64,000 bases of DNA from Moniliella sp. 'wahieum' (GCA_003971905.1 RSEE01000052.1:372001-436000); one strand, 5' to 3'. Positions 1-64,000 are shown, counted from the stretch's first letter. The notes: a model not told the origin generated them from the letters alone. Made by a program: numbers and translations.

Positions 1-2246
1 GCTTCATCATGCAGACACCACCCACGGAGGTGAGCATAGCGCCTATACGAAGAGCATTACAACAGCAAGAATCCCGCTCAGGCAGCGCCAAAAGCTGTGT
101 AGAGTAAAAGGCGTTGAGGATGCTATTTCTAAGCAGCCTGTGGCATTGAGAGACCCCTGAGGCTCAGGCCTGAGGATATACTCATAACTCAGGCAACTCT
201 CCAGTTATATCATTACTCAGTTTCCGTCGTAGTGTTCATAATACCCTTTCCAGAGCTTAAGGATTGATACCTGAACAAAGAAACGCTGCAGTGCCTATAT
301 CAATCCGAACACTACTTTCCCTTTCTCTGGTCGAAATGCCACATGATATCGATTCCACGTACTCAAAGTTCCAGCTAGATCAGTCGAAACCTCGTTAGGG
401 AGCTAGGGCTTCTAAAAAATGGGCTGTCACATTTGCTAGACACATCCGATAATAGGGCCCGGTGTCACTTCTTATCGCGTTTGGGACCTGAGAGATCAAT
501 GGGGCCCCAGGCGGCCGAAAGTAAGTGCTGATCGGATCGTTGTATGCGTCCTACTATAACAGTTCTATCTATGCGGTTGTTCTTCTGCCTAAAAGGTGTC
601 AGGACTGTGGTGGAACCCGCGGTGAATGGGCGAAACTCATGTTGATATCCGTCGTAGGACCGCAGAGGCTCCCACAGTCACTTGTGAGTCAGCTCATTTT
701 TTTCCGCTCCTTCATAGTTCATATCTGTTTTTTTCCGGACTCTTCAAGCGCAGATGCCCCTGCTCTTCGTCCTTAATACCGTCGTTCAGTATACTAGTAG
801 TGTAGGAAGACCGGAACCACTGATTGAAGCTTGAGGAGCTGTGACATGTGAGGGTTCCTCTGGCATGTGGCTTATATTCCCAGGATACGATAATGAATGG
901 TCGGGGCTTGGCTTTTGAAGCACAAGGGTACTAGTAGTAGTAGTTAGAGAGAGGACTGTCCACATATTGCAGCGTTTCGATGCTAAACACTTTGTTGGAT
1001 GAGTACTGAGTACTGAGTATATAATATGGGATGCATATGTGTGTGATATTATATGCGAAAAAGAGGCAAAAGGAGACGTGTACTATCGAAGAACTCCAGT
1101 TGGCTCAGCCAGAGTATGTGTGTTGACCTATAACGAGCCGTCGGAATTGATGAATTTTAACCAGAGTACTTACTAGTTAGGTCTGGGGGCATCGGCATAC
1201 CTAATATATGGGAGGTCGAAGGATAGGCACACAGGCCACACACAGTGAGTGCACAGGAGAGAAAGGAGGGAGCAGGGGGTGTAGGCATGCTGGCACGATA
1301 CCCGCAGCGGGGAATCCGGTGGAAGCGGAAGGACCCTGATCTTATCGGCTGCCAAGATTGTTTTGGACGACTACGGTGCGGGGTGGTTGGGTTGCATGTT
1401 GAAGGCGAAGAGCGGAGAAGAAGTGAGACGCATGCCAACCATGGCTCCCAGGAGAGAGTGCATGTGTGGGCACGTATATTGTGTGAGACTCATCTCATTA
1501 CCTTGGGTTGATGCGCTGTTGGAGCGACGAGCGATAGGGAGTATCTGGACTCAGACTAGTGTGTGTAGAGGACCGAGCGAAGACTCGGGACGTCTGTAGT
1601 AGGCCCAGTGGCATGTCTCTAGTTCCTGGTCACTGCATGTACCTGCCCCCCCCTGCCGTGTGCACCTGGGCAGTGTCATCGGCACCTGTCACCGGTCACC
1701 GGTCACCTGTCAGCCGTGCCAGCGTGGGGTGGCATGCCGTCTGTGTCACATGTCATGCACCATTGATCATCCATGTTCCACCTGCACACAGGCGCACTGC
1801 GCTAACCCCGCCTTGTGGGTGCGTGTCACATGTCACATGTCATGCATCATGCATCATGAACCACTAGCGTACTGCGGCCTGAGAATTACTCACAGTCTCA
1901 GTACTCGGGACGGAGCTACGACTTGTTACATGTTACAGCTTGCCGCGCCAGACAGACGGGCAAGCAGTATGCGGGGCAGCTGGTGTGTTCCTCTCTGCTT
2001 CCTCTGAGGCCTCACCACTCCCAGCACTTGGCCAAGCCAAAAGCCATTTCATTGCACACTACTGTGCCTCTCTATGTAACATGCACTCATTTAAGAAGGG
2101 CCAGCCATCCGCGCATCTCTTTTTCCAGCCTCCATCCTCCCTCCCTCCCCCTCCCCCCCCCCACCCCCCCTTCCCTCTTCCTCTTCCCTCACGTTCTTTG
2201 CCCCCCACGGTCTTTGCCTATCTTCTCTCCCCCACCCCCCACCAGA

Positions 2247-4316
2247 ATGCTTACACGATGCGTTCTCCTCCTGGCTGCCTCCTCGGTCGCCCTGGGCGCC
2301 CGTGTGCTCGGTGGCGCTAAGATCCACCCGGGCGCGTACAAGTACATCACCCCTACCACTGAAGCCCACAATCAGTACAATATGGAGTTCACCATCTACC
2401 TTCCCTCGGGCGACGATGCTGGCCTGGACAAAAAGATGCACGAAATCTCTCTCAACCGTAACCTGCCCTGGCTGACGGACGAAGAGTTGGGCAAGTACGT
2501 GCGCCCCAAGCCGCACCACATCCAGGCCGTGCAGAAGCACCTCGAGGCACATGGTGTCTCGGGCAATTCATTGGTTTGGTCGCCCCACCAGGATCAAGTC
2601 AAAGTCAGACGACGGCCAAGACGGTCAAGGCCATGTTCCCCGGCACCAAACTGCACCTGTACAAGTTCCGTGGCACTACTCACACACTCAAGTCCCACGC
2701 TGTCCACATCCCCGACCACCTCGATGAGGCCGTGGCCCATGTCTCCCACCTGGCCGACTTCCCCATCACGCGCCGCTCGGTCGTTCGCGCTCCCGAGCAC
2801 CTCCAGACCAACAAACGTGCCGACCTGGCGGACCCCACTAGGCCCAGTAAGCACAGCAAACGCATCACTAGTGCCAACGGTGTTGTTCCTCGCAAGGCAC
2901 CAGGGAAGCCTCATCCGGGGCCCAGCGCAAGTGTCAACGCGACTGGCAACAGGGGAACTTCGGATCCAAACAGAACCTCACCCTTGAACTGACTGGATGT
3001 TCCGAGCAATTCATTCCGGCTGACTGCCTGCGTCACTACTATGGCACGTACGATTACACGAAGAACCTCACGGTCGACACCTATGACGGTTCACCTGATG
3101 TCACCATCTTTGGTTACCTTGGCCATAATGCCAACCAACAGGACCTGACGACGTATCTTAAATGTTCCGTCCCGAGGCGGCTGGTTACCAGATTCCGATT
3201 CAGGACATCTACGGTGCTTCCACCAATATGTCGAAACCCACGAGCGAAGCGCAGACGGACATTCAGCTGGGTACGTGGTATTACTTGTTCTTGGTTCCCA
3301 TCATTCGTACACATCCTGACTTGGCTCTTTTCCCTTCTTTTTTTCTCCCCCGGTTTTCTCCCATTGTAGTCGTCGGCCAGTCCTGGCCCCTTCGGACCAA
3401 CTACGTCAACGTTGGCCCGGCCAACAATCCGCAAGACATTTCCTCCAGGCCTTTGACTGGCTGCTCTACGAGGGCGGCTCGACGCAGCGGCCTGGCGTGG
3501 TATCCATTTCCTACACGTCGAACGAACACGGCATGACCGCTTCGGGTGCTCAGACCATGTGCAATGCGGCTAAGAAATTGTCGGCTTTGGGAACGACAAT
3601 CGCCGTGTCAAGCGGGGATCATGGCACGGCGGGCTTTGGGCCCGCGGCGAGGGAGTGTGTGCGGCCGATGGGGGCCAGCATCCATTGTGCCGCTTTACCC
3701 TGTTACATGCCCCTACGTTCTGGCTGGGGGGCCAACCGTGGGTTTAACGGGATTGCCGAGGGTGAAGTCATGACCAATGTCAGCCATCTTCCTGGAGGCC
3801 AGATGTTGGGCTTTTCTCGGGGGCCGGCCGTTCCAACATCTTCCCCCTGACGCAAGCAAAGTATCAGAACAACTTGTGCGCCAACTGCAGCCTCGCATCG
3901 CTTCCTCTCCCGCCGAACCTTCCTACATGTACAACCAGAGTGGCCGTGTCTACCCCGATCTGACCATGAACGGCTGGTGGGCCGATATCGTTGGGCGGGA
4001 TGGTGAATGGGATCGGAGGCACGTCTGCCTCGACGCCCACCACGGCTGCCATCTTGTCGCTGATAAACGATGCGCTGATACGCAAGGGCAAGTCGCGTCT
4101 TGGCTGGGTGCACCCTATGCTCTACTCGCCTAAAATACGCACTAAAGTCTTCCATGACATTCAGCCGGCGGCTCCTTTGGTTGCATCCCCAACCCGACCC
4201 CCCATGATTGGGGGGTGATGTATGTTGGGACTAGGGCCCTTCCGGGGTACGACGCTTCGGCAGGCTTGGGCTCATTCCGGTTCAAGCCGCTAGCCCGCGC
4301 TTTGGGGGCTTTGTGA
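2247..4316 (+). CDS. Secreted S53 (sedolisin / tripeptidyl-peptidase-like) serine protease with pro-domain; intron ~3271-3369; several apparent sequencing frameshifts
   Basis: Signal-peptide-like MLTRCVLLLAASSVALG; activation-domain-like WLTDEELGKYVRP..IQAVQKHLEAHG; EAQTD, SSGDHG, GRVYPD, GGTSASTP (catalytic Ser), LGWVHPMLY, FHDI and GYDASAGLGS motifs spread over several frames. Confidence 0.85.
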
Positions 4317-5239: not shown

Positions 5240-5960
5240 AATCGTTCGTGGGAAGAAGCAAGAACAGAGGACATGGTGCGAAGTGGAAGGAACAGGGAAG
5301 GAGCGAGACGCTCGAGACGAAGAATTTGGAAATGGGAGCGAGATCAGCCAAACTATGACACAAGGACTTATGGAAAGGAAACAGTCCACACCGGAGAGGT
5401 CCTCGGCGGTGGTGGTTTCACGATCGCGGTGCACTTCGGACTTCATTAGCCCCGAGGCTCCGCGGGCCCCGTGGACTGCTGATGCGCGCATAATACTACC
5501 AGCGAAACCAACGACTAGTAGCTTCTCCTGTAACATATGTAGCCCTTATTGTCCTGTTCCTACCACCAACGCCTATCTCTCGCCCGCAATCGATCGCCTA
5601 CGCTACTGTCCTAAACCGTGTGATGGAAGTAGGAGGAGGAGAGAATATCAACAGGCAAGGGGCGACTGTGGTCGCCGACCCTATATTACGTGGGGTTCTG
5701 TCACAGTCGGGGCTAAAAGGCCCTAAGACGAAACCGGTGACCGGTGACCGACGAGCGGTGGAGTTGACGTTGAAGCTTGAAGCTTGAAGCTCTTGAAGGC
5801 AGACCAGAGTCGAGAGGAAGGTGACAATTGTTCGTGGGGAAGAAGCAAGAGCAGAAGATATGATGCGGAGCGGAAGAAACAGGGAAAGCCAAGCAGAGCG
5901 AGACGCTGGGGACGAACAAATTGGAAATGGGAGCGAGAGCAGCCAAATTACGGCAGGGTC
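5240..5960. repeat. Diverged direct repeat, ~120-bp core at ~5240-5365 and ~5826-5960
   Basis: TTCGTGGG(G)AAGAAGCAAGA..., GAGCGAGACGCT and TTGGAAATGGGAGCGAGA.CAGCCAAA occur in both copies, ~585 bp apart. Confidence 0.75.
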
Positions 5961-6229: not shown

Positions 6230-7720
6230 GCTTCAAGTTAGCTTCACGCTTTTGTGAGGCTAAGCGCTAAGCCGCTAAGGTCTCAGCATCTCAGGCCTTA
6301 ATAATAGGCCCTTAGGCCTTAGGCCTTATCGATTTTCGATTATCGATTAGATCGATTATCATACAATCTCAGATCTTGTGTGGACGGAGTTGGGGGGGGC
6401 TTGGCCCTCTGGTCTGGCGCGTTCAGAACGTTGTTGAACGTGTTGAACGCGTTGGATACTTCATCGATGGTCGATCGAGATGATCAATTACCGGTTACTA
6501 GTTACTAGTTACTATAGTTACTAGTGATAATCGATAATCACTTTGATCACTAATCATTAATCATGCATCATGCACCTAGTCACTTTAACCACACACGCTG
6601 TATCTCTATAGAAGTGGGAACCGTGGCTAAAAGCGCAAAGGTGGCGAAGAAGGCCGGTGGCTAAGGTGGCGATGGTGGAACGGTGTGGCTTGCGACGCAG
6701 CACCCAGGGGCACTAAGCTGGGTGACCGGTGTACCGGGCTGTAGGCCCGCTGGTCTCCTCGTCTATTAGAGGGCTTCAAGCTTACCGGATAACCGGTAAC
6801 TAGAACTACGAGAGTAACTCGTAGATGGCTATTGTTCTGCTTATAAGATCTAAGTATAATAGTCACTAGTCACTAGTCAAAATGTTCAACGTTCACTAGT
6901 CACTAGTCACTAGTCACTAGTCGCTGAACACAGTCTCACTCTGAAAGAATCGGGCTCTGAAGGATCTGAGATCTGAAGCCCGATGAGATCGATGATCGAT
7001 GAGTTGATGAGGCCGATGAGAGGTCGATGATCGATGAGGGCAAAATGCACCTGCAGGACGATCGATGGGTGAGGACGAGTAGTCGCGATCACCTCGATCA
7101 CCGGGGAGAGTATAGACCGGGGTTGTCCGTTAACATGTAGCAGTGGGGAGGATAGCCACTAGTTACTAATTCGATAACCGGAAACCTTTGATCTTCAAGC
7201 TTCAAGCTTCTCAAGCTTTCCTGCCATATACGAGTGTAGCCAGCCACTATTACTGTCACAAGTCACCCATGTCACCATTAAGTGGTAAACACACACCTGT
7301 AAACACACTTGTCGCTCTACTATTTATCACAAGCGTCACGCGTCCGCGTCACCCCGACGGCCACAGTACACAGACAGCGACCGAGTAGTCACGGTGACAG
7401 TAGTAGTTAATCACTGTGACGACCGCCAGTACTGTTCAAGCAAAACTACTCAGTTACTGAGTGTACACATTACCTCAAGCTTCAAGCTGCTCTGTATGGC
7501 CCTTTCAGGCTGCGGCCAGCTGAGGCGCTGAGGCTGGCTGCTGAAAGTCTGGGATCTTGGATATTGAGCGCATTGAATATTGAGCCAGCGTCTCACAAGC
7601 TACACGCGTCGATGACACGATTATGACAAGCGCTTGAAGCGTAAAGCTTGAACAGCCTTTTGGGGGCTGTGCCTAACGCGTAAACGCCGCAGCAGTCGTT
7701 CTCATCAGCATCAGCTCTCT
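6230..7720. repeat. Dense cluster of palindrome-plus-spacer heptamer arrays
   Basis: (AGGCCT-T)2(ATCGAT-T)n 6314-6356; ACCGGT-T-(ACTAGT-T)n 6490-6525; (ACTAGT-C)n with AACGTT-C 6865-6921; (AAGCTT-C)2 7197-7209. Confidence 0.9.
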
Positions 7721-12157: not shown

Positions 12158-13140
12158 GAGCTCACTGGCACTCGCTGCTCCCTACTCACGCTCAGAAACG
12201 TCTCCTACCTACCTCCCTCCCACCCATCAACCGGACAACGTTCCTCCGGTTTTGCCCTCTTCATCTCATCTGTTGCGTCAACCCACTTTGATTCTTGGTT
12301 CGCTCAAAGCCTTGAAGGGTTCCTGCATTCAAATTAGTGTTCCCAGTCGACCGCCTTTTCCCTCCATCTTGCTCACCTCGTTTTGGTCTTCGTTCTCGAT
12401 GCGTTGTTCGTTTTTGGTATGAACTCTGCTATTTCTCTGTCTTATGTCTGCTGCTGCGTTCCGCTCGGCTCTCTGGCGCTCAACACTTGATGCACCTTTG
12501 AATATGTTCTACTCGATGCTTTTAACTATGCTGATGGGATGGGGATTCACAAAGCCTGAGCTTGAAAGAGGACGTGCATGACGCGACGGTAGCGAGATTA
12601 GGGTAGAGGGTGGCGTGTCAAGCTAGGGAACAGGGAAAATATCGACAATCGCAGCGAAATGCAAAACAGAGATGTGGGTTTTTCTGTCCCTGATAATCCC
12701 CGGGCCACTCACAAATCAGGCAATGTGCCCGAGCGTTAAGGGATTGATTCGAACTACTGATTGCAATTATCAATTAGGCTTTGCCTGCACAGGTTCGAGT
12801 CCTGTCATTGTCGTTTTTTTTTGGCGACCCCTTCTTGTCGCAACTTCAAGTGTGAATGGAACTGCTCGCGTGCACATGCGGTACATGTTGGGCATTGGGG
12901 GCATTGCGGCGTCGACGCGGACGACTCGATACGGTCGTAAAAGCATTGGAGGGTATAAGTATTTCCATCTGTCCCTTTTTTGTTCGGGGGTTTTGTCAAC
13001 ATTTCAGACGAGGTTCTCGGGGCAGACAGCAGATAGGACGAGGCGAGGATGCAGCAGAGGTGGTTGAGTATTGAATGTTCAGTTGAACGTTGAACGCCAC
13101 CAAGCTTGCAGCCACACGCCTTGCCCGCCCCTCCGCCATC

Positions 13141-13231
13141 ACCCACCATCGCCATCGCCATCGCCATCGTCATTGCCATCTCCATCTCCATCTTCATCTC
13201 CGTCTCCATCTCCATCTTAATTTCCATCTTC
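13141..13231 (+). repeat. Hexamer microsatellite (CATCGC/CATCTC)n
   Basis: caccatcgccatcgccatcgccatcgtcattgccatctccatctccatc... Confidence 0.8.
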
Positions 13232-13275
13232 ACCGCCTCGCCTTCTCTCCCCGCACGCGGCGGTCGCCAGAATCA

Positions 13276-16153: not shown

Positions 16154-17309
16154 CTACTCGAGAACGGTGCTGTCGGGGCGAGCGTGGAGCTCTCTCCGCT
16201 CTTCCCGGCCCGAATCCCCAAACGAGCCAGGGATGCCATCGCGCTGGGCACGGTGGGTAATGGCAAGACTGGTGTACTCGATCAGGGACCAGGTAATGCC
16301 GTGGGAGAAGAAGCTGCGGAACGTGCTCACTCCCAAGCCGCGGTAGAGCCGGAGGAAGCGACGTGGGAGACTCTGTCGTTCGCCCGGCGCGGGAGCATTG
16401 AGGATCTGGAGAAAAATGCGCACGGACGATGTCGGTGGCGCTCCGGCCAACGCTTGTTTTTGCACACGGGTCTTGACAAGGTCCAGGGGGTATACAAAGA
16501 ACCAGGACGCGATTCCGGCTACACTGCCATTCAAAAAGGCCACAATGGGGCCGGGATGCCCCAGACTGAGACGGGACCAGCAAAGACCTGCTCGGATGAC
16601 AGCCCCTGGTGTCGCACTGCCTGCTGGGCCAACAAGGCACGGCAAGAATCGTAAAATCCAAAGTAAAGGGTCGTGCCAAACGTGTCGCGCAAAAGATGAA
16701 GACGGAAGCCCAAGTAAAATCCACGAAGACCGCGGTGGTCGCGATAGATCTGACGGGCAGCTTGCACGCCCGTCATCGCGGTCTTGAAACCGGTCTGAGC
16801 GCGGCCCTGCTGGAGTGCAATGATGTACTCCAGTTGCCGCTGGACCTTGACTAGCTCAAAGGGGGCCGAACCACAGGAAATGATCATGCCCGACGTGGCG
16901 CCGCCCAGGGCGCCCGAGGCAGCCACATCACGAACTGAGAAGGGGTCACAGAACCAGCCGGCTTGTGGAAGAGGCGCTTGGTATTGGTGTAAATGCCAAA
17001 GCTAGAGGTACGCACAAAGGAGATGGTGGCGAGTGGGACGGCCATGCCACGAGTAAAGCCGCGGATGCCCTCCTCGGCAAAGACGGCGCGGGCGCAGTTG
17101 ACGACGGCCGGGCGGGGGTAGACGCGTACCTGGAGGCGTGCCTTGAGCGAATCAAGCGGAAAGGACACGGCGGTGCTGACGAGAGAGGCAGTGCCGGCCG
17201 CAAACCGTGCGATGGTCCCAGAGCCACTGGGACAGGGGGCGGGCGGAGGGGCAGGAGGAGGAGGGGGAGGGGGGCACCAACAGGGGGGGGTCGGGGGTAT
17301 TGGTGGCAT
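16154..17309 (-). CDS. Mitochondrial carrier family (SLC25) protein
   Basis: Three Px[D/E]xx[K/R] signatures: PLDSLKARLQ, PFELVKVQRQ, PLDLVKTRVQ; also GIRGFTRG, GLRGFYLG, LYRGLG; split over three frames. Confidence 0.9.
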
Positions 17310-18680
17310 CGGTCAGCGTCAGCGCTCCGCGCTCAGCACGCTCCTCCCGTTGACGCCCAGCGGACGAGGGGCGGGGCGAGGGAAGAGTGGAGGTGGTGGT
17401 GGCAGCGCACCAGCCGCCGCGGGCGGTGCGATCGGCCGGCCTGGGCTGCTGCTGGAGAGTGCAGCGCCGGGGCGCCTGCACGTGCACACCCAGCATGCAT
17501 CACGTGACGCCCGCCCCACGCCTCGGTTTCATGGGCGGAAGTGCCGTGGGCGGAAGCGCGGAACGGGAGGGGGATTGAAATGTGAAACTGGCACATGGCT
17601 GCGGCCCTGTGGATCTTGGGCGGTGACGCGTGACGCGTGATGCGTGATGGTGATCTTATTACCGCCTGTTGATTTTTCTTTGTTCGTAGACCCTACTCGT
17701 GTTGACGTTTCGAACGTAGGCCAGGGACTAGGGAGCGTCGGCCCGGCATCTTCTGGCCCCGGGTGGGATGGGATTGGGCTGGCGAATGCAGATGCATGAT
17801 ACGCTGACGCGCTGACGAGGGCCGAACGGGAGGAGGATGCAACATGGGCGAACACAGAAAAGGAGGCCATCATGCATCGTACACCCCTTGGCAAGCTTGC
17901 AAAGCTGCAACAAGCTTCCAGGGGCAAAAGGGGCCAAAGGGGGCGAAAAGGGGAAGTGTGTTGTTCGCTGCGGGTGGTAATGTGGATGGGGCCGGTGGGG
18001 GCTACGCCCGTGTGAGGCTTGGGGCGTTGGCGGAATGGGCGGTGGATGCAATCAGTGAATCAGTCCGGTGCATCCACAGGCAATGGCCGGGACAGAGACA
18101 ATGCGGCTGCGGTAACGCCGGTAACGCGTAACGCAGCGGCCGTAATGATCCTGCCATGGCATGTGCGGGTATGGGGCAGGCTTATTTAGGCTGCCCCAGT
18201 GCCAGCGCTGGCTGCATCACACCTCGGCAGCGCTGCGTCCAGCAACCCAGACCAAGCATGCACACGAGGCCCACCAGGCCAGTGTCCACCACACCAGAGA
18301 TAAGGACGCGCCCAGCGCCCAGCGCCCACACAGCCCCTGTGCTGCCCGCCCGGTGCGTCCTGCTGTCCGCCGCCTGCATGCACCTGCTGGGCGTTTTTAC
18401 CTCGCCATCCCAGACGCCATTCGTCGCCCCCCCTCCACCTCCACCACCACCTCCTCCTCCCACCTCCGCCTCACCCGCTCCACGGCCCCTGCCCAACCGC
18501 AGGCCCCGCCCACACCCATGCCCCCGCCCAGCTCTCCCTGGCCGGCGCTCCCGCCCAGCCACTCCCTCGTCCTCACCCCCACCCCGTCCCCGCCCCTGCC
18601 CCCGCCGCCCCCGCCGACACCTGGGGCTCCACCACCCCGACCTCAGCCTCTACCCCCCCCTCATCCTCCCTGCGTCCGAG

Positions 18681-24955: not shown

Positions 24956-25783
24956 GACTCGACGATGGGAGAGGAATGGGTGTGTAACAGCCACCGTTTG
25001 AAGCTTCCGCCTATCTAGTAAGGCGGCATCGTCTGTTATTTGCCCACACAAAACTGAGCGACTGAGCCAGCATGTGCTTGTGGAGTTATAGGATTGTTAG
25101 TAGTAGAAACCACAGTACATTAGCACCCGCCCATCGTCTCAGATCTCACCGCTCATCTCCCCAGGCCTAGTATCACAACCTTCAAGCTTCTCACCCAGAA
25201 GGCACCGGCCACAAGGTAGCTTTCATCCCAAGCGCTGGCCGAGCTGTGTTTCTTGGGCTAACCCACGAGAGAGCCATGTCTGGCGTACCAGGAGAGGTGT
25301 GGTTCCATCGCTGTTGCGGACATGGGGGATGACCGGTGACGGCCACCAATGATGGGCAGCGGAACTGCCGGACAGGCAGCAGTGATCGGTGGTCGCTGAT
25401 TCCGCTTCCTACGCGTTACGCGTCTTATGACGCGTCGCGCTGGCTGTCCCACGGCGTTTACGACGTGGGAGAACCGAATGCCGAGCAGTCACGTGCCTGT
25501 CGGTAGTTGTACAGTTCACGGTCAATGCCGATCACTGGTCACCGGCCAAGGTGCAACACTGCCGTGTGGCCTTCGGAGTAGATGCTTACGTACAGCAGGC
25601 AGGAGCGGCCGGGCACACTGCCCCCCTGGTGCGCATTCGCTCACCAATGGCCGATGCGCCTGTTGCTTGCTTGGGCTGCCTCAGGCCTCAGGCCGCGTCC
25701 CCATCCCGCCCGACTTTGGCCACAGCCACCTACCTACCTTTTTCTTGTCTGCCTTCTTACCGCCACCCCCCCATTGGATCACC

Positions 25784-26466: not shown

Positions 26467-27450
26467 GCTTCCCATGTTCTTTCTTGTTTCCCGTGTCTTG
26501 TCGCGCCGTATTGCGCTTCCTTGGGCTCCCTTCACGGCCCTTGCATCCGAGCAACGTACGCAGGCTAGTCTTGATCTCTCTCTCTGTGCATTCATAGCGG
26601 TGCGGGGCCAACCAAGTAGGCCTACCTCCTTGGCTCTTCCGTGTCAAGGCGTATGTTGCCCTTTGGGAGGGCCACTGCTCCCCATGCCCCCCCTGGCTGC
26701 GTCCATAGTCCGCAGCTAGGCAACTTCACGACACAAGTATTAGGCCACAGCTTTGCAACTCCAAATAGCTTCTTGCCAGGCCCGCTGGACACTGTGACAC
26801 CCGGTATGCCCGTCTGCGTGTTGAGATGCAAATCCGCGGCCTCAGAATTTAGAGGCGTTAGGCCTTAGGCGTTAGGCCAAGGCCCGTTTCGCGTCAGGCC
26901 TGGCCCAATCGGCCGGGGAAGATCGCTGAAGCGCGAAGCAGCTTAACGCGCGCGTGAAGCCGAACCGGCTGAGCCCTGAAGGGCACAACCGGTTGGGCCT
27001 GATTAAATTCCACGCCACGGCGGATGACACCCCCGTGCGGACTGCCCATGGGCGTTCTTGTGGTTCCCTGCCCCTTTTGTGGCTCTGCTTCACGAGAGGC
27101 GGCTGCAGGCCACCGCCAGCCAGGCCGCGCACAAGCGCAAGTTGACCATCGAGCCATGGAGTCAGGCCTTCGCACCTTCTCCGGTTAGCGATCAGCTTCC
27201 GCTGGCGCCCTAGCTGGCTAGGAGTTGACGCGGCATGAGGCCCAGGGCTGAGGCTGAGGCTGCGCGCTGGGGCTCAATAAGCGCTTAGGCTAAGCTCGCC
27301 TGGCGGCAATGGCTGATCAGATGATCGATGATCGATCAAGCGCCTCGGGACGCCCAGGCCAAATCAAAAGCCACGCGGGCCATGTGATTTCAGTTGCAGC
27401 TTGTCTTCCCCCCCCCACCGTTTTCCTCGGCCTCGCCTGCCTCGTCCATC

Positions 27451-28819: not shown

Positions 28820-30720
28820 ATGAACGGAACCCAGAGTGGAAACACTCCGTCTCCCTCGTCGCGTCCTGCCGCTGGCCAGCGCGACCTCACCTTCACCAAC
28901 AACTTCTGGGTGCGTTTTCTATTTTTTTCCCTCCTTCTCATCTTCGTATTCATCTCCACTTGGCCTGCTGGGCTCAGCGTCTGGTTTGCTGACAACCTTC
29001 CTTCCCCCCCCCCCCCAGGGTGAAGGCGACGAAGGTTTCAATAGGGTCATCTGCCGTGTAAACGACACGGCCAAGACCTTGGACAACTGGGCCGCCTATT
29101 GCAACGATCGCGCTCAGATTGAAGCGGACTATGCCCGACGCTTGACCCAACTGGCCCGCAAGTCAATTGGCGAGAATGGTACTGGGTACGTGCTTGGGTC
29201 TGTCACGCGTATGAGAGTGCCTGACTTTTTGCCGCCAGGGACATGGGCGCAGCGCTGGCCACGTTGCAGCAAAAACGGGACGCATCGCCCAAACACACGC
29301 TGCTATGGCCAAGGAGCTGGAGGATGGCGTGTCTGGTGAGGTAGCCCAGTTTCAGAAGGACCATGCTGCCTTTTTCCCCACCTCGGTGGATACGATGGTC
29401 AAGGAGACCTCCATCAAGCGCAAGCATGTTACCATGCAAATCCAAGCGCAAGAGACGTACCAGACCCTGTGCCGCAAAGTCAAATCTTTCGCCGCTCACA
29501 TGACGGTTGTGCGGGGCCGCGACCTGGAGCAAGCCGAGGCCAATTTGGAGGCAGGCTAAGCAGGCCAGGGCCGTGGCCGAGCGGGATTATCGCCAACACA
29601 CCATGGCCGTGCGCAATGCCACGCACAAGTGGAACAAATATTGGAAAGCGTTCCTGGACCAAGCTCAGGATGAAGACGAGGAGCGAACCAATTTCATCCA
29701 AGGAAGCTGCTGGCGATACGTCGATGCAGTGGCCACAGCATGTGTGGAAGACGACAAGGCATGTGGAGTGGTGTATGATGCATTGCGCACCATCGACGCG
29801 GCTCGTGACTCGGCCAACTTTGTTGCCGAATCGCGGACAAGCAACTATGTGGTTGAAGCCCCTGCATTCATTAACTTTGCCCAAGATCAAACCCGACCCA
29901 CGAGTCTGCCTTACGGTATTGCTGGCTTCACTCGTTCCTCGAGACACGACCCTGGGCACGAGATCCCTCCTCAAGCGCCGCCCGAGGATGCAGGCACACC
30001 ACCGCGGATGACTCTGTCGCCGCCCCCCCTTGTAGGGGAATTGCAAGCACCCTACAACCCCAAACAGGGTATCCAACCCGGACCGATGCGGACAGACACA
30101 TCGCCGACTCCCCCGTCCAAGGAGCGGACGTCCAGCTACCCGCCCACCGTCTCTTCCAACCAATCCTTTGCAGCGCGCCAGCCTCCCACCACCCACAGCT
30201 CCTCTTTCTCGTCCAACTCCATCGCCCTGCCCCAACACGCGCGGTCCCAATCTTTGCCATGGGAGTGCGCCCTGACGCAACCAACACAGGTGCAGCAGAG
30301 AGAGCGTGTATCGGTGGAAGATCGGCTGGCAGCGATGCTCCCTCGCAACCAAATCGCCAACGCAAATACGCCACCTCCCTCTACCGTCGTGTACGAGCCC
30401 CGAAACCTGCCGCAACAGCCGGCTCAGGGGAGCGGGGCAACCTTTTCCTGCGACCCTCCCCAACCCGTTTCCGGATGAAACGGAAAGCACGCCGCTTCGT
30501 TCCCAGTCGGGTGTGGACCAGCCGCAACAGGCTACCCAGAATCAGATGCCTCCGTCGGACGCAGCGCAGTATATGCGTGCGTATCAGCGCCGGCAGTCTG
30601 GAATACCACCCCATTACAATGAAGCTTCCATGGGCACCTCCGTGCCCCCTCCTATTTAAACCCGATATCTCACCTGCACTTGCACCTGCACCTACACCTG
30701 CGCCTGCTCCTGCACTTACA

Positions 30721-30805
<85 letters not shown>

Positions 30806-31291
30806 TGCTCCTGCTCCTGGAACCGCACCAAAACCAGAGCCAAATCCACGTCCACCAGTGCCAGCGCCAGCGCGAGCACCAACTGCGGCTCCGCCTGCTG
30901 CGACGCCGTACCTGGCGGGAGAAATGTATCCCTCCTTTTCTTCCTCTGAAGCTTCCCAATCGCTCAATGGGCAGCATATCCCGCCTCCCGAGCCAGAGGC
31001 TGCGACGGCGCCTGTCCCTGGCCTCCCCTCGGCATCGACCCAGCAGCCTCTCTCTGGCACCACTGCTACGAATGCTTGGACCCAACCGGATGGACGGAGA
31101 GTAAAGTTTTTCGTCAAGGCCATGTTTGATTACACGGCCGCGATGGACAGTGCGTTTTCGTTTACGAAAGACGATGTGATTGCGGTCACGGCCTGTCCGC
31201 CCAATGGTGGTGGGAGGGCGAGTTGATGGACGAGGATCGTCGAGTCCAGGAGCCAATAAGTTCCCGTCCAACTTTGCGAGTTTTTATTTAA
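28820..31291 (+). CDS. F-BAR (FCH) plus C-terminal SH3 protein, Cdc15/Hof1-like
   Basis: FTNNFW|GEGDEGF, YCNDRAQIEADYARRLTQLARK, QDEDEERTNFI; SH3 FFVKAMFDYTA...FSFTKDDVIAVT...FPSNF; Pro-rich linker. Confidence 0.85.
30673..30818 (+). repeat. (CCTGCT)n hexamer microsatellite, probable Pro-Ala linker
   Basis: Long run of cctgctcctgct... Confidence 0.95.
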
Positions 31292-31305
31292 TCCCACAAC
31301 TATAT

Positions 31306-38026: not shown

Positions 38027-38899
38027 TTTCGAGCGGCGGGAACGGCAGGAGCTGAAGATGGTGGACGAGGTGGTGGAGACAGTGGCGGGCGTGGCGGGCG
38101 TGGCGGGCGACCGAGGCACGTAGGTCCCGCCTCAGCTCGGGGTGCTCAAGCTTCAAGCTTCAAGCTTCAAGGCCTCGCTCCAGCTGCAGGCTGAGGAGCG
38201 CCGAGGAGCGATGGGACATATAGTGATGCAATAGTGGCACACTGCCCCCGTGCCTGGGGTATGCAATCGTGCACAGGCCATCCCTCTCAAAAGTTTGGCG
38301 CAGCTGAGGATGAGAGGCCGAGGCAAGGACGGTCTCCTGTCCACCTAGAGTCAGGTCTAGCCGGCCCCCATCGCCCTCGTCTGCAGCGCGGCTGCGTCGA
38401 GGGGAGCTTTCCAATGCCAATGCCAATGCCCGTGCTGTTCGCAATGGTTGCCTACGCAGATCTAGTGCGCCGGGCTGCTTGCTCGTGGTTCCAGTAGGTG
38501 CTCTGGTCCGTGCTGCAGACTGCGGCATTTCGTCCAGGCGCACCAGGCTCTTCAGGTGTAACTTCAAGATAGTTTCACAGGGCAGCATCCACATGGCCGC
38601 TGGGGGGGAACGCTGGGGCAAGGAAAGGGCGGGGCGGTAGGAAAAAAGAAAAGGGAACGGCGAGAGGGAATCAGGTTACGGGCGAAGAGTTAGGAGGCAA
38701 GACATGGACGAGGAAAATGGACAGGGGATATCACGCAAACAGCAGGGGAGGATCAGAGGGAGACAAGTGTTCCATCAAACGAAGGTAAGAGACATTGACG
38801 ATGAGAAACGAGCCCAAACCGGTGGGGCACGGACCAAGGGGAGACCACCAACCACCTAGGCTCAGGGCGAACGGGTTGGCCAGGCCACCGCAACCGCAC

Positions 38900-40865: not shown

Positions 40866-41734
40866 TGGGAAGGAGTGTGGGGTTGTCCTTGGCCAGCAAG
40901 GATGTGGGGGTGGGGGTGGGGAGGCTGCTGGTGGGGGCTACGGCGTGGCTACGTGTAGGTTGCTGGGGCTAGTCACTAGTCACTGGTCGCCGCCAGCGCA
41001 GCCGACACGCAGCTGCGCGGAGGAGGCTTGGAGTCTGGAGCTTGGAGCTGGCAGTCTTTGTAACTCGGCTGGCAGTTGAGGGTTAGTTGAGGGTTGAGGC
41101 GTTGCGGCTGCTTAGGTACGCGTGCGTGGAGCGAGCGGGGTGGCGGCACGCCACCTGGCCAGTGTCCACATGTTATTTGCTGCAGTAACTAGCAACTGGT
41201 GCCCCGCCCACCCAGCCCTCCGATCGGCAGCCCGCCGCCGCAGCAGGCACAGCGGTCGTCTTACCTAAGCACACGCCATGTGCGTACTGAGTGGCTCTGC
41301 GCTGCTCTGCGCTGCTCTGCGCAACGCCCGCTCTCCGACCGTGCAGCAGCCCGTCGCTCGTCGCCCGACACACAGGCTGCGTCCGAATTCGCAACCGGCG
41401 CCCATCACACTGCGGCCGTGTGCCGCCGGGGCGAGTGCGACACGGTGCGTCTCGCGCTTGTGGCGCACCCACACTGGCCCTGCGCGGCGCGCGTGGCGAG
41501 TGCGGACCCATGCGCTGGGCGCCTGCGGGCCGCCCGCGCACGGCGCCAGTGCTGTGGTGGCAGCCCAGGGTGCGCGGCGCCACACAGCGCGCCCCCTCGC
41601 CCGGCCCGCTCCACCCGCGGCCAGCACCCACACCCCGCCGACCGCCCGCCCCCAAGCCCCGACGCCCGCCCAGGCGTCGCCATCCGCATCCGCATCTGCC
41701 CCCCACCACCACCACCACTCCCCCCTCCCACACC

Positions 41735-47193: not shown

Positions 47194-47807
47194 ACACGAT
47201 CTCAGATCTCATGCCTCACCCAGCCCGCTCGCGCCACAGCCCAATACCGCTTCCTCCATCCACCCCTCCATCCCTCCATCCCTCCATCCATCTCGGGACA
47301 CTGCTCCCACCCTCCATCCTTTCCTTCGCCCTCTCCCTCTCCCTCTCTCCCTTTCCTTTGTCCCCCCCCCACCACCTGGCTGTGGTCCCCCATGTATTCC
47401 TGCCACTACCTCCCGTACCCTGCGCTGCTCTGCTCTCCTATCCCCCCCCCGTCCCCTCCCTCTGCGCAGTCGGGCCTCGGGCCTCCTTGCTTGTTTTAGT
47501 TTAAGGCCCGTGTGTGGTGCGCTCGCCAGACTGCCCGAACATTGACTTAGTTGTCCTCCCCGGTCGTTGCGTTGTGCGTTGTGCGTGGTGCGTTGTTCGT
47601 GTCTTTGTGCTTGGACGGCGCGGCAGGATGAATGAGGCTGTAGGATCCCTTGGTGGGTGGCGTGCCCCTGCGACGGGGATCTTCCAATGCGCGTCTCCGC
47701 GGGTGCTAGTGGTAGTGGTAGTGGTATAGTGGTAGTGGCAGTGGCAGTGTAGCACAGAGAGAGCCATGCACTGAGGCTCGGCCACCGGGGCTGGGCCCAG
47801 CGCTGAT

Positions 47808-47978
47808 ATCAACGCCATCAACGTGATCAACGTGACCAACGAACGTGATTAACGTGACCAACGGGATCAACGTCACCCGCGTCACCAACGGGATCAACGT
47901 TACCAATGGGATCAACGTCACCAACGTGATCAACGTGATCAACGCGATCAACGGGATCAGCGGGATCAATGCGGGGAT
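47808..47978 (+). repeat. 9-bp minisatellite, consensus A(T/C)CAACG(T/G)(G/C)
   Basis: atcaacgcc atcaacgtg atcaacgtg accaacg... atcaacggg atcagcggg atcaatgcg. Confidence 0.9.
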
Positions 47979-49112
47979 TGGGCGGCTTCCATGGTCTGCC
48001 CCCCGCGTAGGTAGGGTGACGCGGTGACGGTGTATGCCTACCGTCAGGCGTCAGGGCTCTGGCGGAGCGATCCCTCCATGAACGAGTGACTGATCGTGAG
48101 ACGTTAGTACTAGTAGTGATCCCAATCGACCCCTCACGCCGGCAGTGCCTACCGGAGTGCTAGTGACGAGGAGTCGTGGCTGAGTGGTCGGACCGTTGAA
48201 CGGAGCAGGCACGGTGGGACGCGGGAACAGATCGAGCAGCAACAGCGAATCGTAGCTGCCTTACTTCGTGGGCGGTTTTTTGCATACGCCAGGTTTCGTA
48301 ACCAGAGGTCGCAACTGGCTGGCGCTTCAGTTCAAGTAACTTGTTACCCCCCACCTTGCCTTGAAGCTTGAGACCGTTGCCAGATACTAGTTACTAGTTA
48401 CTAGTTACCGCATACCCACCATTCATGGCCGGTTAAGGGGGGGGGGGGGCTTGTGCATGCCACCCAACTGAAAAATACGATTGAGCTCTGGCCGACGAGG
48501 AGGCACTCGTGGGTGCGCTTCCAGGTGGAGGAGGATGCAGGGAGAGGGAGAGTGATGAGTTCAGTCCTGCCGGTCGCCCACGTGGCGGTCCTACCACACT
48601 GACGTAGAGCGCTGACCAAGTACGTGGACTCTGTAAACTGCCTACGAAGACGCAGCGCTGTGACCTGTGTCTGGCCTGCAGTGGCTACGCCTGAGGTTGA
48701 TGCAGATGTTGATGGTTGTGATGATGGTTGTGATGATGGTGATGAGGGGCCTTGATCTTGGTCCTGTGGCCCGCAGAGAAGCGGAGCCGAGGACTCAGGA
48801 CTCAGGCTGACACTTTGGACTGATGTGGGCGTATCGGTGCGGCACCAAGTTGGAGAACCACAGCGGCGTTGAGTCTGGCCCACTGGTTGCCCACAAGGCG
48901 CTAGCGCTGTGGAACACTGCGTTGTAGCTGCTCCGGGCGCTCGTAGGGCGCAGTGCATCACCTACTGTAACTCAAATTGGCGGCCCACCTATTCAATACA
49001 ACTACCTTAACCGGGAGGACTCGTGACTAGACTACAGCGTCGAAGGAAGCCATTGGATTGTCGAATGCACTCCGCCCTCTCTTGTCCCCAGTGCGCTGCT
49101 TGGCGGGGTGGA

Positions 49113-50796: not shown

Positions 50797-51679
50797 GGTG
50801 GTGGAGGGGGGAGGGGCAGGGGCAGGCAGCGGACGCTTAAGGGCGGCGGCCGAGGGCTGATTGACTATTGACGCCGGGCAAAAAGCCGGCTGGGGCTGGG
50901 CTGCGGCGTCAGCACGTAACTGTGCGGCGGCCTGCGTGTGTGTGCTGCTGCGTGCTGCTGCGTGCTGCTGCCTCCTCCTGCCGCCGAGGCGCGCACGGGC
51001 CGCTGAGCCCAGCCGCAGCAGAGCCAGCCTGTGCGGCTGAGCGGCGCTGGATTTTTTTCGGGGCTTTGTCCGGGCGCACGGACTTGTCTGCTGGCGAGCC
51101 ACCCAATCATTAATCACCCATCGGCGTGCTGATCAGATCCCGAGGGCCGCGCCGGTGCCTAGCCAGCGCCTGGCCAGCCAGCAGCCACCGCCGAAAAACG
51201 CCGGCGCTGCGCTACGCCCTGCTACGTCCGGCCGCCTCATCCCATCGGTGCAACGCCCGCCGCTGTTCCGCCCCGGGCATTTGAATCTGAGATCTGGCAT
51301 CTGACATCTGATCGATCCGATCGCACTCCAAGCTCCGCTATCGATCAACATATATCAACCCCGGTTCGTCCGACATGCCTGCCTGCCGCTCCACACCAGC
51401 CCTCGCCGCGTAGGTGTGCATTGCTCCGGCGCAATAAAGACTGTACCGTACCAGGACGAGTGGGGCGCCGGCGGGCCGAGCCACCGCACGCTCACGCTCC
51501 TGTACGAAAGCGAAACCAGTGCGAAAAAAAACATACGTGTGTGCGAGCCGATAGCAGGGCAATGTCCATCCAACAAACGTCAAGCGTAAAGCGCCAGCAG
51601 GCGCCGTGGTCCCAGGAAAGAACCCATCAACAAGGAAAGCAACAACAGAAGCGGGGAGAAACCCGTATCCTCAACGCGC

Positions 51680-53694: not shown

Positions 53695-54569
53695 GGCGTC
53701 GGGAGGTGTAGGGTAGGGGTGGGTAGGGTAGTGGTAGTGGTGGTGGTGGCGGACCAAAGTAGCCAACCGAGGCGCTCGGCAGGAGCGACATGCGACACGC
53801 CTCGCGCCACCTCCCACCTCCGCCCTGCTCCGCTCGGCACCCGCCCCGGCTGCAGCCGACAGGACACTGCCCCCGCGCGGGCTGCGCTGGGCGGCTTGGC
53901 TCGCCGCTGCGGAAGACTGCGGCGGGCGGAGTCCGAGGGCAGGGGGGGGCTCTTATTTATTGCACTCCGTCCGTTCGATCGTCCCATCGATCCCGCCCAT
54001 CGCTCATCCTATCCATATCCAGCGGTACTTGACGCGCCACTAGCCACGCACCAACCCCCTCGATCGCCCCGCCGGTGGCCAGCAGAGAGCGCAGTGGACA
54101 CGCGTTGCTCGCTGACTCTCGCGTGCCAGTTGGAATGTGCATCCACATCTACATCCGCATCCACCGCCGCACAACAATCGTTGGTTGTGTGCCTCCCAGC
54201 CGTGTCAGTGCTCTCATCCTCCTCATCGGCAGCATTACAATTACAACACACACCGAGTGGTGGCAAGAGTGCCGGGTGGTGTTACATGTCATGGGCGTAG
54301 AGCCCCGTAGCACTATAACAACGCAAAAGAACCTCATAATAGATGATATGGTACAGACTCCCTATCGTATGATACCGATTGAAGCCAGGGAAGCAGCCCC
54401 AAGCACACCCCCAAGAATAGCATCAGCCAGAACGAAAAGAAGGAACAGAACGGCTTGGCTGCTGGAACGCAGCACCTTTGCGCTGTGCAAGAAAAAATGG
54501 TTTGTTTGGAAACGATCGTGAGGCAACGAAGAGACATTATGCATTATGCATGATGCATGGTACTACTCG

Positions 54570-58730: not shown

Positions 58731-61304
58731 TCAGCCGAGCGACCGACTTGCGTTCGGTGATGCGGCGCGCTTACGTTCGGGCGAGGCGGCGCGCGCCGCC
58801 GCATTGCGCGGAGGCGGATTGGCAAACACGGTCGCGCCGCGCGCCTTGGGCGCCGTCCGGCGTCTGGTCGACGCAAGCGGCGGTAAATCCTCTTTGCCCA
58901 GACTGAGCGGACGAGACTTGGGGGGACTAGCGGGGGGCCTGCTCGGGCTCGGGGCACGACTGGGGAAGGCCTTGAGTTGAGGCGCGACGAGCGGGCTGAG
59001 ACTGCGCCGCGTAGGCGAAGGCGATTGCCTCGGCCGCGGCACCTGCAGCCCTGCAGTGACCAACGACGGGGTGGAGGGGACGTGCGCAAGCGGCGGCACG
59101 GGCGGCACGGGCGGGACCGAGGCCGGGGCCAGACGCCGAGTGACGACATTCTTCGTCGGAGACAGGTCAAGCGGGCGCGACGAGAGTACAGGACGAAGAT
59201 CGTGCTGCTTGTTGGGGGTCAGAGAGCCTTGTCTTTCCCGCTGAGCAGGGCTGGGACTGGCGATCGCACGGCGCGGATCCGTGACTACCCTGCGTTGGCG
59301 TGGGCTGGGAGTGGCATACGACGCGTTCCGTTGCGCCGATACGAACGACACCCGTCGTCCTCGCCGCATCTCGGACACGGAGCGCTTGGAGACGGACAGT
59401 CTGCGATGAGTGGATTTCGTCCGTCCCGTTCCACTTGCCATGCTCATACCCGGGGAGAGGGGGACATCCAGACGCGTCGTCGGTCGAGCTGGCTCCCGTG
59501 CTGGGGGGCGCGAGCAGAAGGCTCGTGGCTCCCCCGACGATGGTTTTGAGAACAAGAACAAGAGTATCGTACTGCTGCTGAATCCGTATGGCCTTGGTCT
59601 CCGCCTGGAGCTTGCACTCAAACCGGCTAACGCGGAACGGGCGCTGTCGTCAAGGTTGGGATTGCGCAGAGGGGTGGAGAGGGCGGTGCTAAAGGTCTTG
59701 TGTGCTGCGTCGAGCGCACGAGACGAAGCGAGCAGGTCGCGGCCTTGCATCTTGCTCTCCTGCAGAGCGAGAGCTTCTTGTAACCCCCGGTGCGCTGGGT
59801 GGGAGACGAGCTTGGAACGGATCACCTCGGCTTGGATATGAGCCGCGTGGAGGTGAACTTGCAGCGGTGCATTTGCCTCGACCGACGCGCGGTAGATGGC
59901 AGCGGCGCTGATCATCTCCTCCTGCCCTGCCTTGAGAAGGGTAGCCAGTTCCTGCTTCTTCCTCTCGTCAACGTCCGATGAGAGGGTTTTGCCCTGCTCG
60001 AGAAGACTCTTGAGACGCGCATTCTGTTCCTGTAGCTCCAGAATCGCCTTGGCATACGACTCGACATGCCGATCCACATTGATCAAGTTCTGGCTCACCT
60101 TGGTCCGGATTGACTTGGCCGAGGCGGCGTATTTGAGCGTCTTGTGCGTCTCTTCAAAGTGCTCCGAAGATGGCGACACACACAATCATCACCGTGCGAC
60201 AGTTGCCGCCCAACGAAAACTTGAGCAGCCGGGTCAACTTCGAGTCGCGATAGGCACATGTTTGTGGCCCCCGCGGCAGAGAGCGTTGATGCAGTTGGCC
60301 AAAGCAAGAAGAGAACGGTTGATATTGGCTCCTTCCATCATGCGTTGTCCACGGTTCCGTGTCGCGGAAGCGCGTTCGGACCCAGCAAGGTCGATGATGT
60401 TGAGGCTAGCCGAGGTACACTCCTCACTCAACCCCATGTCCTTGGGGCGCTGCGTCAGGTTCACCTGCAACACGGCATGCGAGCGGGAGGAGACTGCGTT
60501 GGCCTCGGTGGGGCTCATGGTGCGACGACGATTGCCTTCGGTAATGAGCTCCAGCACTTCTTTCGGTGAGCTTGGCGTGTGTTCACTGAGGCCTACCACA
60601 CTGATCTTGGTTCCACGACCGCACGCTGAGTCGCGCAAAGGCAGGCCTTGCCCGGGGGGGGTAGGCGTGGAGGAGAGCAAATCACGAATCTGCTCATTGT
60701 AGATCTCCAAATACGAGAGCTTGATCGTCACATCCTTCTCGTCCGCAACATCTTGCGCGCGCTGGAACAAATCCGACATGGTTTGGAAGATGATGCCCGG
60801 GTCGGTGGGTGTTCCCGAGATGGTGTGGGTCTTGCCACAGCCGGTAGCCTGCTCGTTCGTGTCAGCCAACTGGGGGATCATCGATCAAGCCGGAAGCGAA
60901 ACAATCCATACGTACACCATAGGCAAAGACAGTAGCGTTAAACCCATTGAGGACACCGTCCAGCATGGGCTGGACCGTGCCAGCATACACCTCCTGCTGG
61001 GTAGCCTGCTCGGGGAAGACATGGTCAAAGGCGTAGCGGGCGTCTTTGTTGGGGCGGGCGCCATGGCAGAAAGCAGGATTGGCTTGGCGGAGGCGCTTGA
61101 GCGCCTCGCGGTCGGGAGGATCAAAGACCAGGACGCGCTCACTGACCACACTGACAATCGAGCGCAACTTTTTGCCGCGCGGTTCGGGGGGCGGACAAAG
61201 CCGCCGTCGCCAAGGAAGGGGTCGTCGTCGTCAGGAAGCAGGTGCGGGAGCTCCTTGGCGTTGAAGGGACGCACGCGGACGGCAACCGAGATGCTGGACT
61301 CCAT
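58731..61304 (-). CDS. KIP3: Kinesin-8 (Kip3-like) motor
   Basis: [112 protein letters not shown]. Confidence 0.92.
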
Positions 61305-63280: not shown

Positions 63281-64000
63281 GGCGAGGCAGTGGTGGGGGC
63301 AGGCGCGCGAGCTGGGCCGGGGAGGATGACGCGAGGGCAGGCGCGGATGACGGCGGCGGGCACGAGCTCGGGCTCGGGCTCGAGCGCAACCCTCTGCTCC
63401 GCAGCGCTCCCAACTTGGCCCTGCGCGCAGAACACCGCCCCCGTGCCCCAGCCTCCCCACACCGCGTGGGGGCAGTGTTGCGCACCGACCGCGCCAGGCG
63501 TGCCCAGCAGCGCGGGGGGCCAGTGTAGCCCTGCAGTAGGGTTGTCCGTGCGGCTTGCCGTATGCCACGTGTAGCCTTGCACATCACACGTCACACATGC
63601 ATCACGCCACGCATATCACACGCCCCATGGGACCGTCGCCCAGCCGCTGCAGCATGGTCACGTGGCCAGACAGCATGGCGGATGCCAAGCTCTGCGGCAC
63701 CCAACCATGGACCGTCAGGCGTCAGGTGACGCCTCAGGCCCATCAGGTGTATCAGGATGCCTCAGGGATGCCTCAGACCATCAGGGGGGCGCGACAAGGA
63801 AGTGCCACCATCGCCTCCCCCTCGCCGTTAGCGTGCCCTTGTTGAGCCACCGGGTGGCTCGTGTGTTTGACCATTGAAGGTCACTTCGGTCCCTCTCTTT
63901 ATTAGGCCTCAGGCCTCAGGCCGCAAACCGCTTACGGTTCCCTTTTGTTTCTCTCTCGCTTCTGGTCCTCTTCGTTCCGCAGCATAGCCCCTGGTGGAGA

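Follow-up and report, generated by a model that had tools for sequence, protein, structure and literature searches.

The nuclear genome of the fungus Moniliella sp. 'wahieum' contains short tandem arrays of heptamers that follow a strict grammar. The material analysed comprises a 64-kb window (GCA_003971905.1, RSEE01000052.1:372001-436000; the whole stretch, numbered from 1 to 64,000) and loci fetched from metagenomes. The array pattern is genuine and greatly exceeds chance. At a TNA triplet that is already present, each event inserts exactly 7 bp, which consist of a second TNA and a 4-bp palindrome. This palindrome is templated: it combines the dinucleotide on one side of the ancestral TNA, left or right, with the reverse complement of that dinucleotide. 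At about even confidence, we read the arrays as scars of a transposase-type reaction, left by a cut-and-paste element with a 7-bp target-site duplication (TSD) and later expanded by slippage.

Period-7 arrays in non-coding DNA

Exact period-7 duplications of at least 14 nt number 54 in the window, compared with 10 for period 8 and 17 for period 9. In 100 dinucleotide shuffles, the period-7 class reached a mean of 4.16 and a maximum of 11. A 6-bp palindrome lies inside 35 of the 54 duplications, and all 35 begin with A and end with T, with none beginning with C, G or T. A 6-bp palindrome followed by one nucleotide and the same palindrome occurs 24 times when A-initial (shuffles: mean 0.03, maximum 1), and identical pairs at every other spacer from 0 to 5 occur only 0-2 times.

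These counts agree with much of a preliminary description made from the sequence alone. Tandem Repeats Finder detects period-7 arrays at the places cited there, and all the named arrays lie at, or a few bases from, the given coordinates; the sole exception, cited at 51290, is imperfect (TGA GATC TGg). The estimate of at least a dozen palindromic cores holds, since 14 of the 16 possible 4-bp cores occur. No arrays of C-, G- or T-initial palindromes had been noticed, and at a spacer of 1 each of these classes indeed gives 0, against 24 for A. Enrichment by first base and spacer length over dinucleotide shuffles, computed within the window, is likewise found for A-initial palindromes with a 1-nt spacer. 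The location in non-coding DNA is also upheld, as only 5 of 45 chains of units fall inside stop-to-stop open reading frames (ORFs) of at least 200 aa (p = 2e-7), a mask that extends over 61% of the window sequence and includes 48% of all TNA sites. Outside these long ORFs there are 40 chains per 1156 TNA sites.

A unit of TNA and a 4-bp palindrome

The repeat was originally described as a palindrome bounded by A and T plus one spacer base. A better parse is TNA, a 4-bp palindrome and a second TNA. Ten-mers of this form with the same N in both triplets occur 63 times, while 100 shuffles gave a mean of 2.19 and a maximum of 6. Each of the remaining 15 triplet classes, put in place of TNA, yields 1-11 occurrences. 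The suspected tie to T-N-A is therefore supported. T and A are obligatory in the triplet, the usage of N follows the background and no target consensus extends beyond T and A. Neither directly adjacent triplets (TNATNA, 37 versus 36 for an ANT control) nor triplets separated by 8 nt (31 versus 29) are enriched.

The behavior of N indicates how the arrays grow. Units with different N number 13, versus 63 with the same N, and arrays with changing cores keep an identical TNA throughout. Because reflection would alternate N with its complement, the constancy of N means that growth proceeds by direct 7-bp duplication. Growth purely by fold-back or reflection, which the preliminary description had entertained, is ruled out on this ground. 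Its broader proposal of a sequence-generating process, as opposed to a set of binding sites, gains support. As a separate observation, 6 of the 13 different-N cases (at 164, 2005, 27278, 27329, 28608 and 61505) are perfect 10-bp palindromes in which the second triplet carries the complement of N, a share somewhat above the expected one third.

Flanking dinucleotides template the palindrome

For the flank test, each chain was collapsed to a single TNA with the outer flanks ab and cd, primes denoting complements. A core was classed as left-templated (L) when it reads b'a'ab, as right-templated (R) when it reads cdd'c', as B when both flanks account for it and as x when neither does. The rule fits 54 of 63 units; when the core lists were permuted among chains 2000 times, the mean was 8.9 and the maximum 23. 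Counted by chains, it fits 37 of 45, with 8 unexplained (permutations: mean 6.1, maximum 15); this is the fairer figure, since units that share a homogeneous chain depend on one another. Of the units that stand alone, 27 of 33 follow the rule, versus 4.84 expected. The preliminary claim that the arrays share geometry but not sequence must accordingly be revised, because the core is copied from the two bases next to the ancestral TNA.

The boundaries of the arrays follow the same logic. Among 49 maximal period-7 runs, the most frequent start lies 2 nt before the first TNA (17 runs), and the commonest single class starts there and stops on the last TNA (10 runs). This start defines the minimal product as the 12-mer a b T N A b' a' a b T N A, which occurs 80 times on the two strands versus 0.34 in shuffles. 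In 11 of the 37 explained chains the target was an odd palindrome from the outset, compared with 7.8% of TNA sites.

Mixed chains are ordered. All three that are fully explained place left-templated before right-templated cores: tg (TCA CATG)2 (TCA TGCA)2 TCA tg at 1826-1856 (LLRR, collapsing to TG TCA TG), aa TCA TTAA TCA TGCA TCA tg at 6554-6570 (LR) and gt TCA ACGT (TCA CTAG)3 TCA ct at 6886-6916 (LRRR). The fourth, aa TTA CCGG (TTA CTAG)2 TTA ct at 6488-6511 (xRR), contains one unexplained core and is followed by TTA CTATAG TTA, with a 6-bp core.

Homogeneous chains of several units are right-templated in ga (TGA GTAC)2 TGA gt (1000-1016), tg (TCA CCGG)2 TCA cc (1689-1705), gt (TGA AGCT)2 TGA ag (5771-5787) and, with three units, gc (TCA AGCT)3 TCA ag (38146-38169). 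They are left-templated in cc (TTA GGCC)2 TTA tc (6312-6328), ag (TCA CTAG)2 TCA aa (6863-6879) and ag (TTA CTAG)2 TTA cc (48391-48407), and both units are unexplained in gg (TGA CGCG)2 TGA tg (17624-17640). As for all features given here, no strand is assigned.

Single left-templated units occur as tg TGA CATG TGA gg (842-851), tg TCA CATG TCA tg (1746-1755), ga TTA TCGA TTA ga (6340-6349), tc TGA GATC TGA ag (6967-6976), ga TGA TCGA TGA gt (6993-7002), ga TGA TCGA TGA gg (7028-7037), at TGA ATAT TGA gc (7574-7583), tc TCA GATC TCA cc (25139-25148), tc TCA GATC TCA tg (47202-47211), ct TGA AGCT TGA ga (48362-48371), aa TCA TTAA TCA cc (51107-51116) and ga TCA TCGA TCA ag (60878-60887). The right flank alone accounts for cc TCA AGCT TCA ag (7475-7484), gg TAA CGCG TAA cg (18122-18131), cg TTA GGCC TTA gg (26858-26867) and ca TGA GCGC TGA gc (34480-34489). 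Either flank would serve for tg TTA CATG TTA ca (1926-1935), gg TGA CCGG TGA cc (5738-5747), gc TAA GCGC TAA gc (6261-6270), ga TAA TCGA TAA tc (6528-6537), ct TCA AGCT TCA ag (7195-7204), gt TGA ACGT TGA ac (13084-13093), cc TCA GGCC TCA gg (25681-25690 and again at 63909-63918), ga TGA TCGA TGA tc (27322-27331), ag TCA CTAG TCA ct (40973-40982) and ca TTA TGCA TTA tg (54537-54546). The rule does not account for at TGA AGCT TGA gg (825-834), ac TTA CTAG TTA gg (1170-1179), ga TAA CCGG TAA ct (6790-6799), ta TAA GATC TAA gt (6844-6853), cc TAA CGCG TAA ac (7674-7683) and ga TGA CCGG TGA cg (25330-25339).

Two pairs of arrays that share a core are inversely oriented, namely 1675-1710 and 5733-5768, with a sedolisin gene between them, and 5772-5792 and 7190-7210, with the 5.8-7.2 kb spacer between them. 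Given the presence of 45 chains, these pairs are probably due to chance.

Ancestral states in a Russulales-like contig

A metagenome scan for (TCAAGCT)3 returned more than 121 contigs, most of which carry that array alone. The array or its complement appears in contigs L001-L121 at G+C contents of 0.30-0.65 and in random phase, with near-uniform phases in 44 classes among 119 arrays. Such repeats of the AAGCTT type are therefore common well beyond this fungus, given the very different G+C contents. Apart from the seed, A....T palindromic heptamers are not in general excess at these loci (9 A-initial and 7 other, beside 149 non-palindromic), and the wider grammar is shared only by L063, L067 and L070.

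The contig L063 is informative about starting states. Its positions 1-20021 hold four diverged tandem copies of a 5.5-kb unit that encodes a MOV10/SDE3-like RNA helicase. The helicase gene is 86% identical to a Lactarius sanguifluus gene, which identifies the contig as Russulales-like basidiomycete DNA. The copies are 76-97% identical over the repeat blocks compared, and the copy numbers of their heptamer arrays differ. Three of the four copies were aligned, and two loci were informative. At the first, the copies read CGC TGAGA AC, TGAGA TC TGAG, and TGAGA TC TGAGA TC TGAGA. At the second, two copies read AG TAA C and the third reads GG TAA CCGG TAA CCGG TAA. The paralogues thus display single-TNA, +7 and +14 states, and each step adds 7 bp, made up of two inverted and five direct bases. 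These states place a single TNA without a palindrome at the start. Copy C of the contig also contains a long, mutated TGAAGCT-like array and 600-900 nt of extra sequence, and the paralogues are too diverged to define the extra sequence as an insertion.

Minor products and the length of the duplication

Two rarer product classes bear on the cut geometry. The first consists of a 7-bp repeat interrupted by two inverted nucleotides (abTNAcd d'c' abTNAcd, here the 7+2 form, with period 9). Six such forms have TNA exactly central, four of them independent and two within a minisatellite. The independent forms are CTTGAAG CT CTTGAAG (5783-5798) and GTTGAAC GT GTTGAAC (6433-6448), both with central TGA, GATCACC TC GATCACC (7087-7102, central TCA) and GGTAACG CC GGTAACG (18111-18126, central TAA); the flanks of the last two are non-palindromic. 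The minisatellite, at 47808-47969, separates the 3' ends of FKS1 and G6PD and contains about 18 copies of a 9-bp repeat, ATCAACGTG and variants, whose unit GA TCA AC GT corresponds to an expanded 7+2 form. The second class comprises five plain 7-bp duplications with a central TNA: CGTGATG (17636-17649) and GTTGAGG (41086-41099) around TGA, and CGTCAGG (48042-48055 and 63713-63726) and ACTCAGG (48793-48806) around TCA. The central TNA in both classes indicates that the duplication is 7 bp long and centred on N, a length deduced from scars and not from a resident element.

A dense run of TGA triplets at 6960-7040 has irregular fillers, in order AGGATC, GATC, AGCCCGA, GATCGA, TCGA, GT, none, GGCCGA, GAGGTCGA and TCGA. 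The run has the appearance of many overlapping or decayed events, and its filler GATCGA could represent two overhangs joined through 2-nt microhomology.

A proposed route from cut to scar

Hairpin formation and opening at a break, one of the processes proposed in the preliminary description, is the best route to palindromes without a loop. Zero-loop palindromes copied from the flank are the signature of P nucleotides, which arise when hairpin-capped ends open away from the centre. In the model, an enzyme would cut the two strands with a 7-bp stagger that has N of the target a b T N A c d in its middle. Insertion of an element and filling of the gaps would then create the 7-bp TSD abTNAcd. Upon excision, both flanks would be sealed as hairpins, and each hairpin would be nicked 2 nt from its tip. 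This nicking would leave a duplex ending in abTNA with the overhang cdd'c' and, on the other side, the overhang b'a'ab with a duplex beginning TNAcd. Both 4-nt palindromic overhangs would be ligated opposite each other, and replication or mismatch repair would keep one of them, giving abTNA cdd'c' TNAcd or abTNA b'a'ab TNAcd.

The same scheme would produce the minor classes. Opening at the tip on one side would give the 7+2 form, and opening at the tip on both sides a plain duplication, so that a symmetric 7-bp TSD combined with hairpins fits all product classes. Within this model, palindromic targets would be over-represented because they yield two cohesive overhangs. Each event would also make a new palindromic TNA site, and repeated hits together with ordinary slippage could lengthen homogeneous arrays. 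The most likely agent is a cut-and-paste family with 7-bp TSDs, whose insertions may not persist in gene-dense DNA while neutral scars do.

Other geometries were considered and rejected. A 3-bp duplication with filler from the element ends disagrees with a filler that tracks the host flank and uses 14 cores. A 5-bp duplication with two P nucleotides would account for the commonest 12-mer; it lacks symmetry, however, and gives neither the 7+2 nor the plain 7-bp class. Odd-centred hairpins of the hAT type, with a TSD of 7 or 8 bp, predict an A-N-T centre or an ancestral A-4nt-T unit, and neither was seen. Hairpins made by a telomere resolvase or tyrosine recombinase should, by reasoning, yield inverted and not direct cores.

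Comparison with known systems

The hAT superfamily makes 8-bp TSDs with the consensus nTnnnnAn, whereas the duplication here spans 7 bp, its third base being T and its fifth A. The likeness to hAT elements such as Ac/Ds and Hermes lies in palindromic filler derived from flanking host DNA between two TSD copies, and in a host that decides which products dominate (PMC5873905). In plants, yeast and Candida, that source describes Ac/Ds footprints as palindromic insertions of P nucleotides that stem from flanks capped by hairpins, with one host able to favour two products, and it counts 28 kinds among 128 hairpin footprints in C. albicans. Here there is essentially one product type.

PIF/Harbinger elements (mPing/Pong) resemble the present system in their target, as PMC4561436 gives TNA with a free middle base for PIF/Pong, the same triplet as in the window. 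However, PIF/Pong duplicates 3 bp and excises precisely (PMC4561436), leaving through 5' overhangs, whereas the duplication here is 7 bp and TNA-TNA is not enriched. No DDE_Tnp_4-type transposase has a Pfam match in 100 ORFs of the window (10 plus 90 of its 192 ORFs of at least 130 aa). Apart from the arrays themselves, the window holds no Tourist-like elements, that is, TNA-flanked inverted repeats.

Tc1/mariner scars, in which element-end nucleotides lie between two TA copies, share with the arrays a short palindromic filler between TSD copies and a fixed length. In that superfamily the filler consists of the inverted ends of the element and is constant per family. The filler here instead derives from the host flank, in 14 forms. 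A general statement on footprints of this type is found in PMC4561436. Heptanucleotide microsatellites are also comparable in their tandem copies and copy-number variation, but they differ from arrays that are born from a single TNA with an inverted 2-nt copy and a fixed phase.

The preliminary description knew no name for this class of elements, which stands only in part. The components (staggered cut, TSD and P-nucleotide footprints) match known chemistry, while the overall grammar was not found described; literature searches, with literal array strings included, returned no account of TNA-centred heptamer palindrome arrays. We know of no earlier account of the TNA-centred 7-bp geometry, of one product that dominates or of its accumulation across a genome.

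Weighing the readings

Several points weigh against a cut-and-paste origin. Pfam identifies no transposase family among the 100 window ORFs. No element flanked by a 7-bp nnTNAnn repeat occurs in the window, and in 668 kb of metagenome loci such matches fall only inside the arrays themselves. A window search for elements with inverted ends and 3-, 5-, 7- or 8-bp duplications likewise gave only chance-level or array-internal matches. About 63 scars and no resident copy in the window make an unusual ratio for transposon footprints; the scar density is very high and the product spectrum is much narrower than that of published hairpin footprints. The palindrome of hAT footprints is centred on the complement of the element-adjacent base, whereas here the centre falls between bases (cd|d'c'). 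All statistics derive from one 64-kb window and one 20-kb contig.

Candidate families with the right TSD length are known in Basidiomycota. According to PMC12730594, 7-bp duplications are made by Kyakuja, a KDZ family of Agaricomycotina including Russulales, and by hAT7 of Pucciniales, and a preprint gives 4-8-bp duplications for Cryptococcus KDZ elements (bioRxiv 10.1101/2025.05.19.654958). Kyakuja is thereby known from the order that L063 resembles (PMC12730594). The likeness of both families to the present system is one of TSD length. The string 'Ustilagin' appears nowhere in the text of the article, so that neither family is reported there from Ustilaginomycotina, and the supplement gives no flank sequences for them (PMC12730594). 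No element with a KDZ transposase and CA..TG termini was found in the window, 100 ORFs of which were screened, and neither family has a copy there.

The strongest competitor dispenses with the element. A host TNA-specific nuclease or a domesticated transposase could make 7-bp staggered breaks in open chromatin, and fill-in with turn-around synthesis or hairpin capping could write the palindrome as a genome-intrinsic mutational process. This scenario is unlikely in our estimate, and yet a serious rival, because neither the window nor L063 yields a transposase or a resident element, the range of products is small and almost deterministic, and scars are as dense as the count outside long ORFs indicates. 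The presence of the pattern in the distant basidiomycete contig also speaks for it. However, filling in a 7-nt stagger gives plain duplications, here a minor class of 5, and not zero-loop palindromes, and the window offers no candidate gene. We know of no host enzyme with TNA specificity and a 7-bp stagger. That basidiomycetes possess an element-independent, TNA-specific break-and-repair process that continuously generates heptamer arrays in promoters is a tentative suggestion, well short of probable.

Ordinary microsatellite dynamics, in which palindromic heptamers form hairpins in single strands and are created and expanded by slippage, are improbable as the origin of the pattern. Arrays of up to four identical units, the minisatellite, the widespread metagenomic (TCAAGCT)3 arrays with their nearly uniform phases and the mutated array in copy C of L063 are what slippage would produce. 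However, slippage requires an existing repeat, whereas the ancestral states in L063 are single TNA triplets without a palindrome, and it is unable to copy two bases in inverted order. It also leaves unexplained why T..A is absolutely required (A 92; C 6, G 6, T 1) and why the 2-nt boundary is sharp, and the metagenome loci outside L063, L067 and L070 lack the wider grammar. Later expansion by slippage is compatible with the transposase-type reading.

Selection for cis-elements or a structural code is very improbable. Sites for a dimeric factor, cruciforms or three-frame stop arrays (TGA or TAA every 7 bp) would suit a confinement to non-coding DNA, and TNA is indeed TGA or TAA on one strand, with 7 equal to 1 modulo 3. 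But 14 different cores are used, each set by neighboring bases and not by a motif, and copy number differs among the L063 paralogues. The depletion in ORFs is expected in any case, since +7 is a frameshift. Stop arrays find nothing in their support, and the structural DNA code suggested at the outset is left without any. An assembly, amplification or base-calling artefact is the least credible explanation of all: although the arrays are known here from assembled sequence, they are confined to non-coding DNA, obey the flank-templating rule and recur with paralogue-specific states in an independent metagenome contig of another fungus.

Host and genomic neighborhood

Genes are densely packed in the window, which belongs to the nuclear genome of a smut-related fungus. 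Pfam matches include a fungal-specific transcription factor, sedolisin, eIF2-alpha, cornichon, FKS1 glucan synthase, G6PD, kinesin and the regulatory subunit of protein kinase A. A fragment of the last shares about 50% identity with the named relatives nearest to it, all Ustilaginomycotina (Pseudozyma flocculosa, Thecaphora frezii and Violaceomyces palustris), and one further sequence reaches 81% identity. Hexanucleotide arrays unrelated to the TNA grammar are also present: CCATCT with 14 copies (13146-13229), and CCTGCT with 24.7 (30673-30819) and TTCCTC with 32 (31305-31493), the latter two within or beside an F-BAR gene region. C-rich and G-rich low-complexity tracts mark gene borders at 2136-2243 and 17232-17297.

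Implications

If the scar reading is correct, about 1 in 30 non-coding TNA sites in this fungus would preserve a legible scar from an earlier visit of the enzyme. In compact fungal genomes, a cut-and-paste element or a related enzyme would then be a major source of promoter and terminator sequence, including at places that no longer hold an element. Secondary growth from such scars would account for the 9-bp minisatellite and for an excess of heptanucleotide repeats. Because the grammar is strict (+7 bp, T-N-A and a flank-templated palindrome), scars can be counted genome-wide and dated, and both the cut geometry of the enzyme and the hairpin-opening rule of the host may be deduced from sequence alone. 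Should the process prove free of any element, it would represent a new mutational signature of endogenous origin that also supplies regulatory variation.

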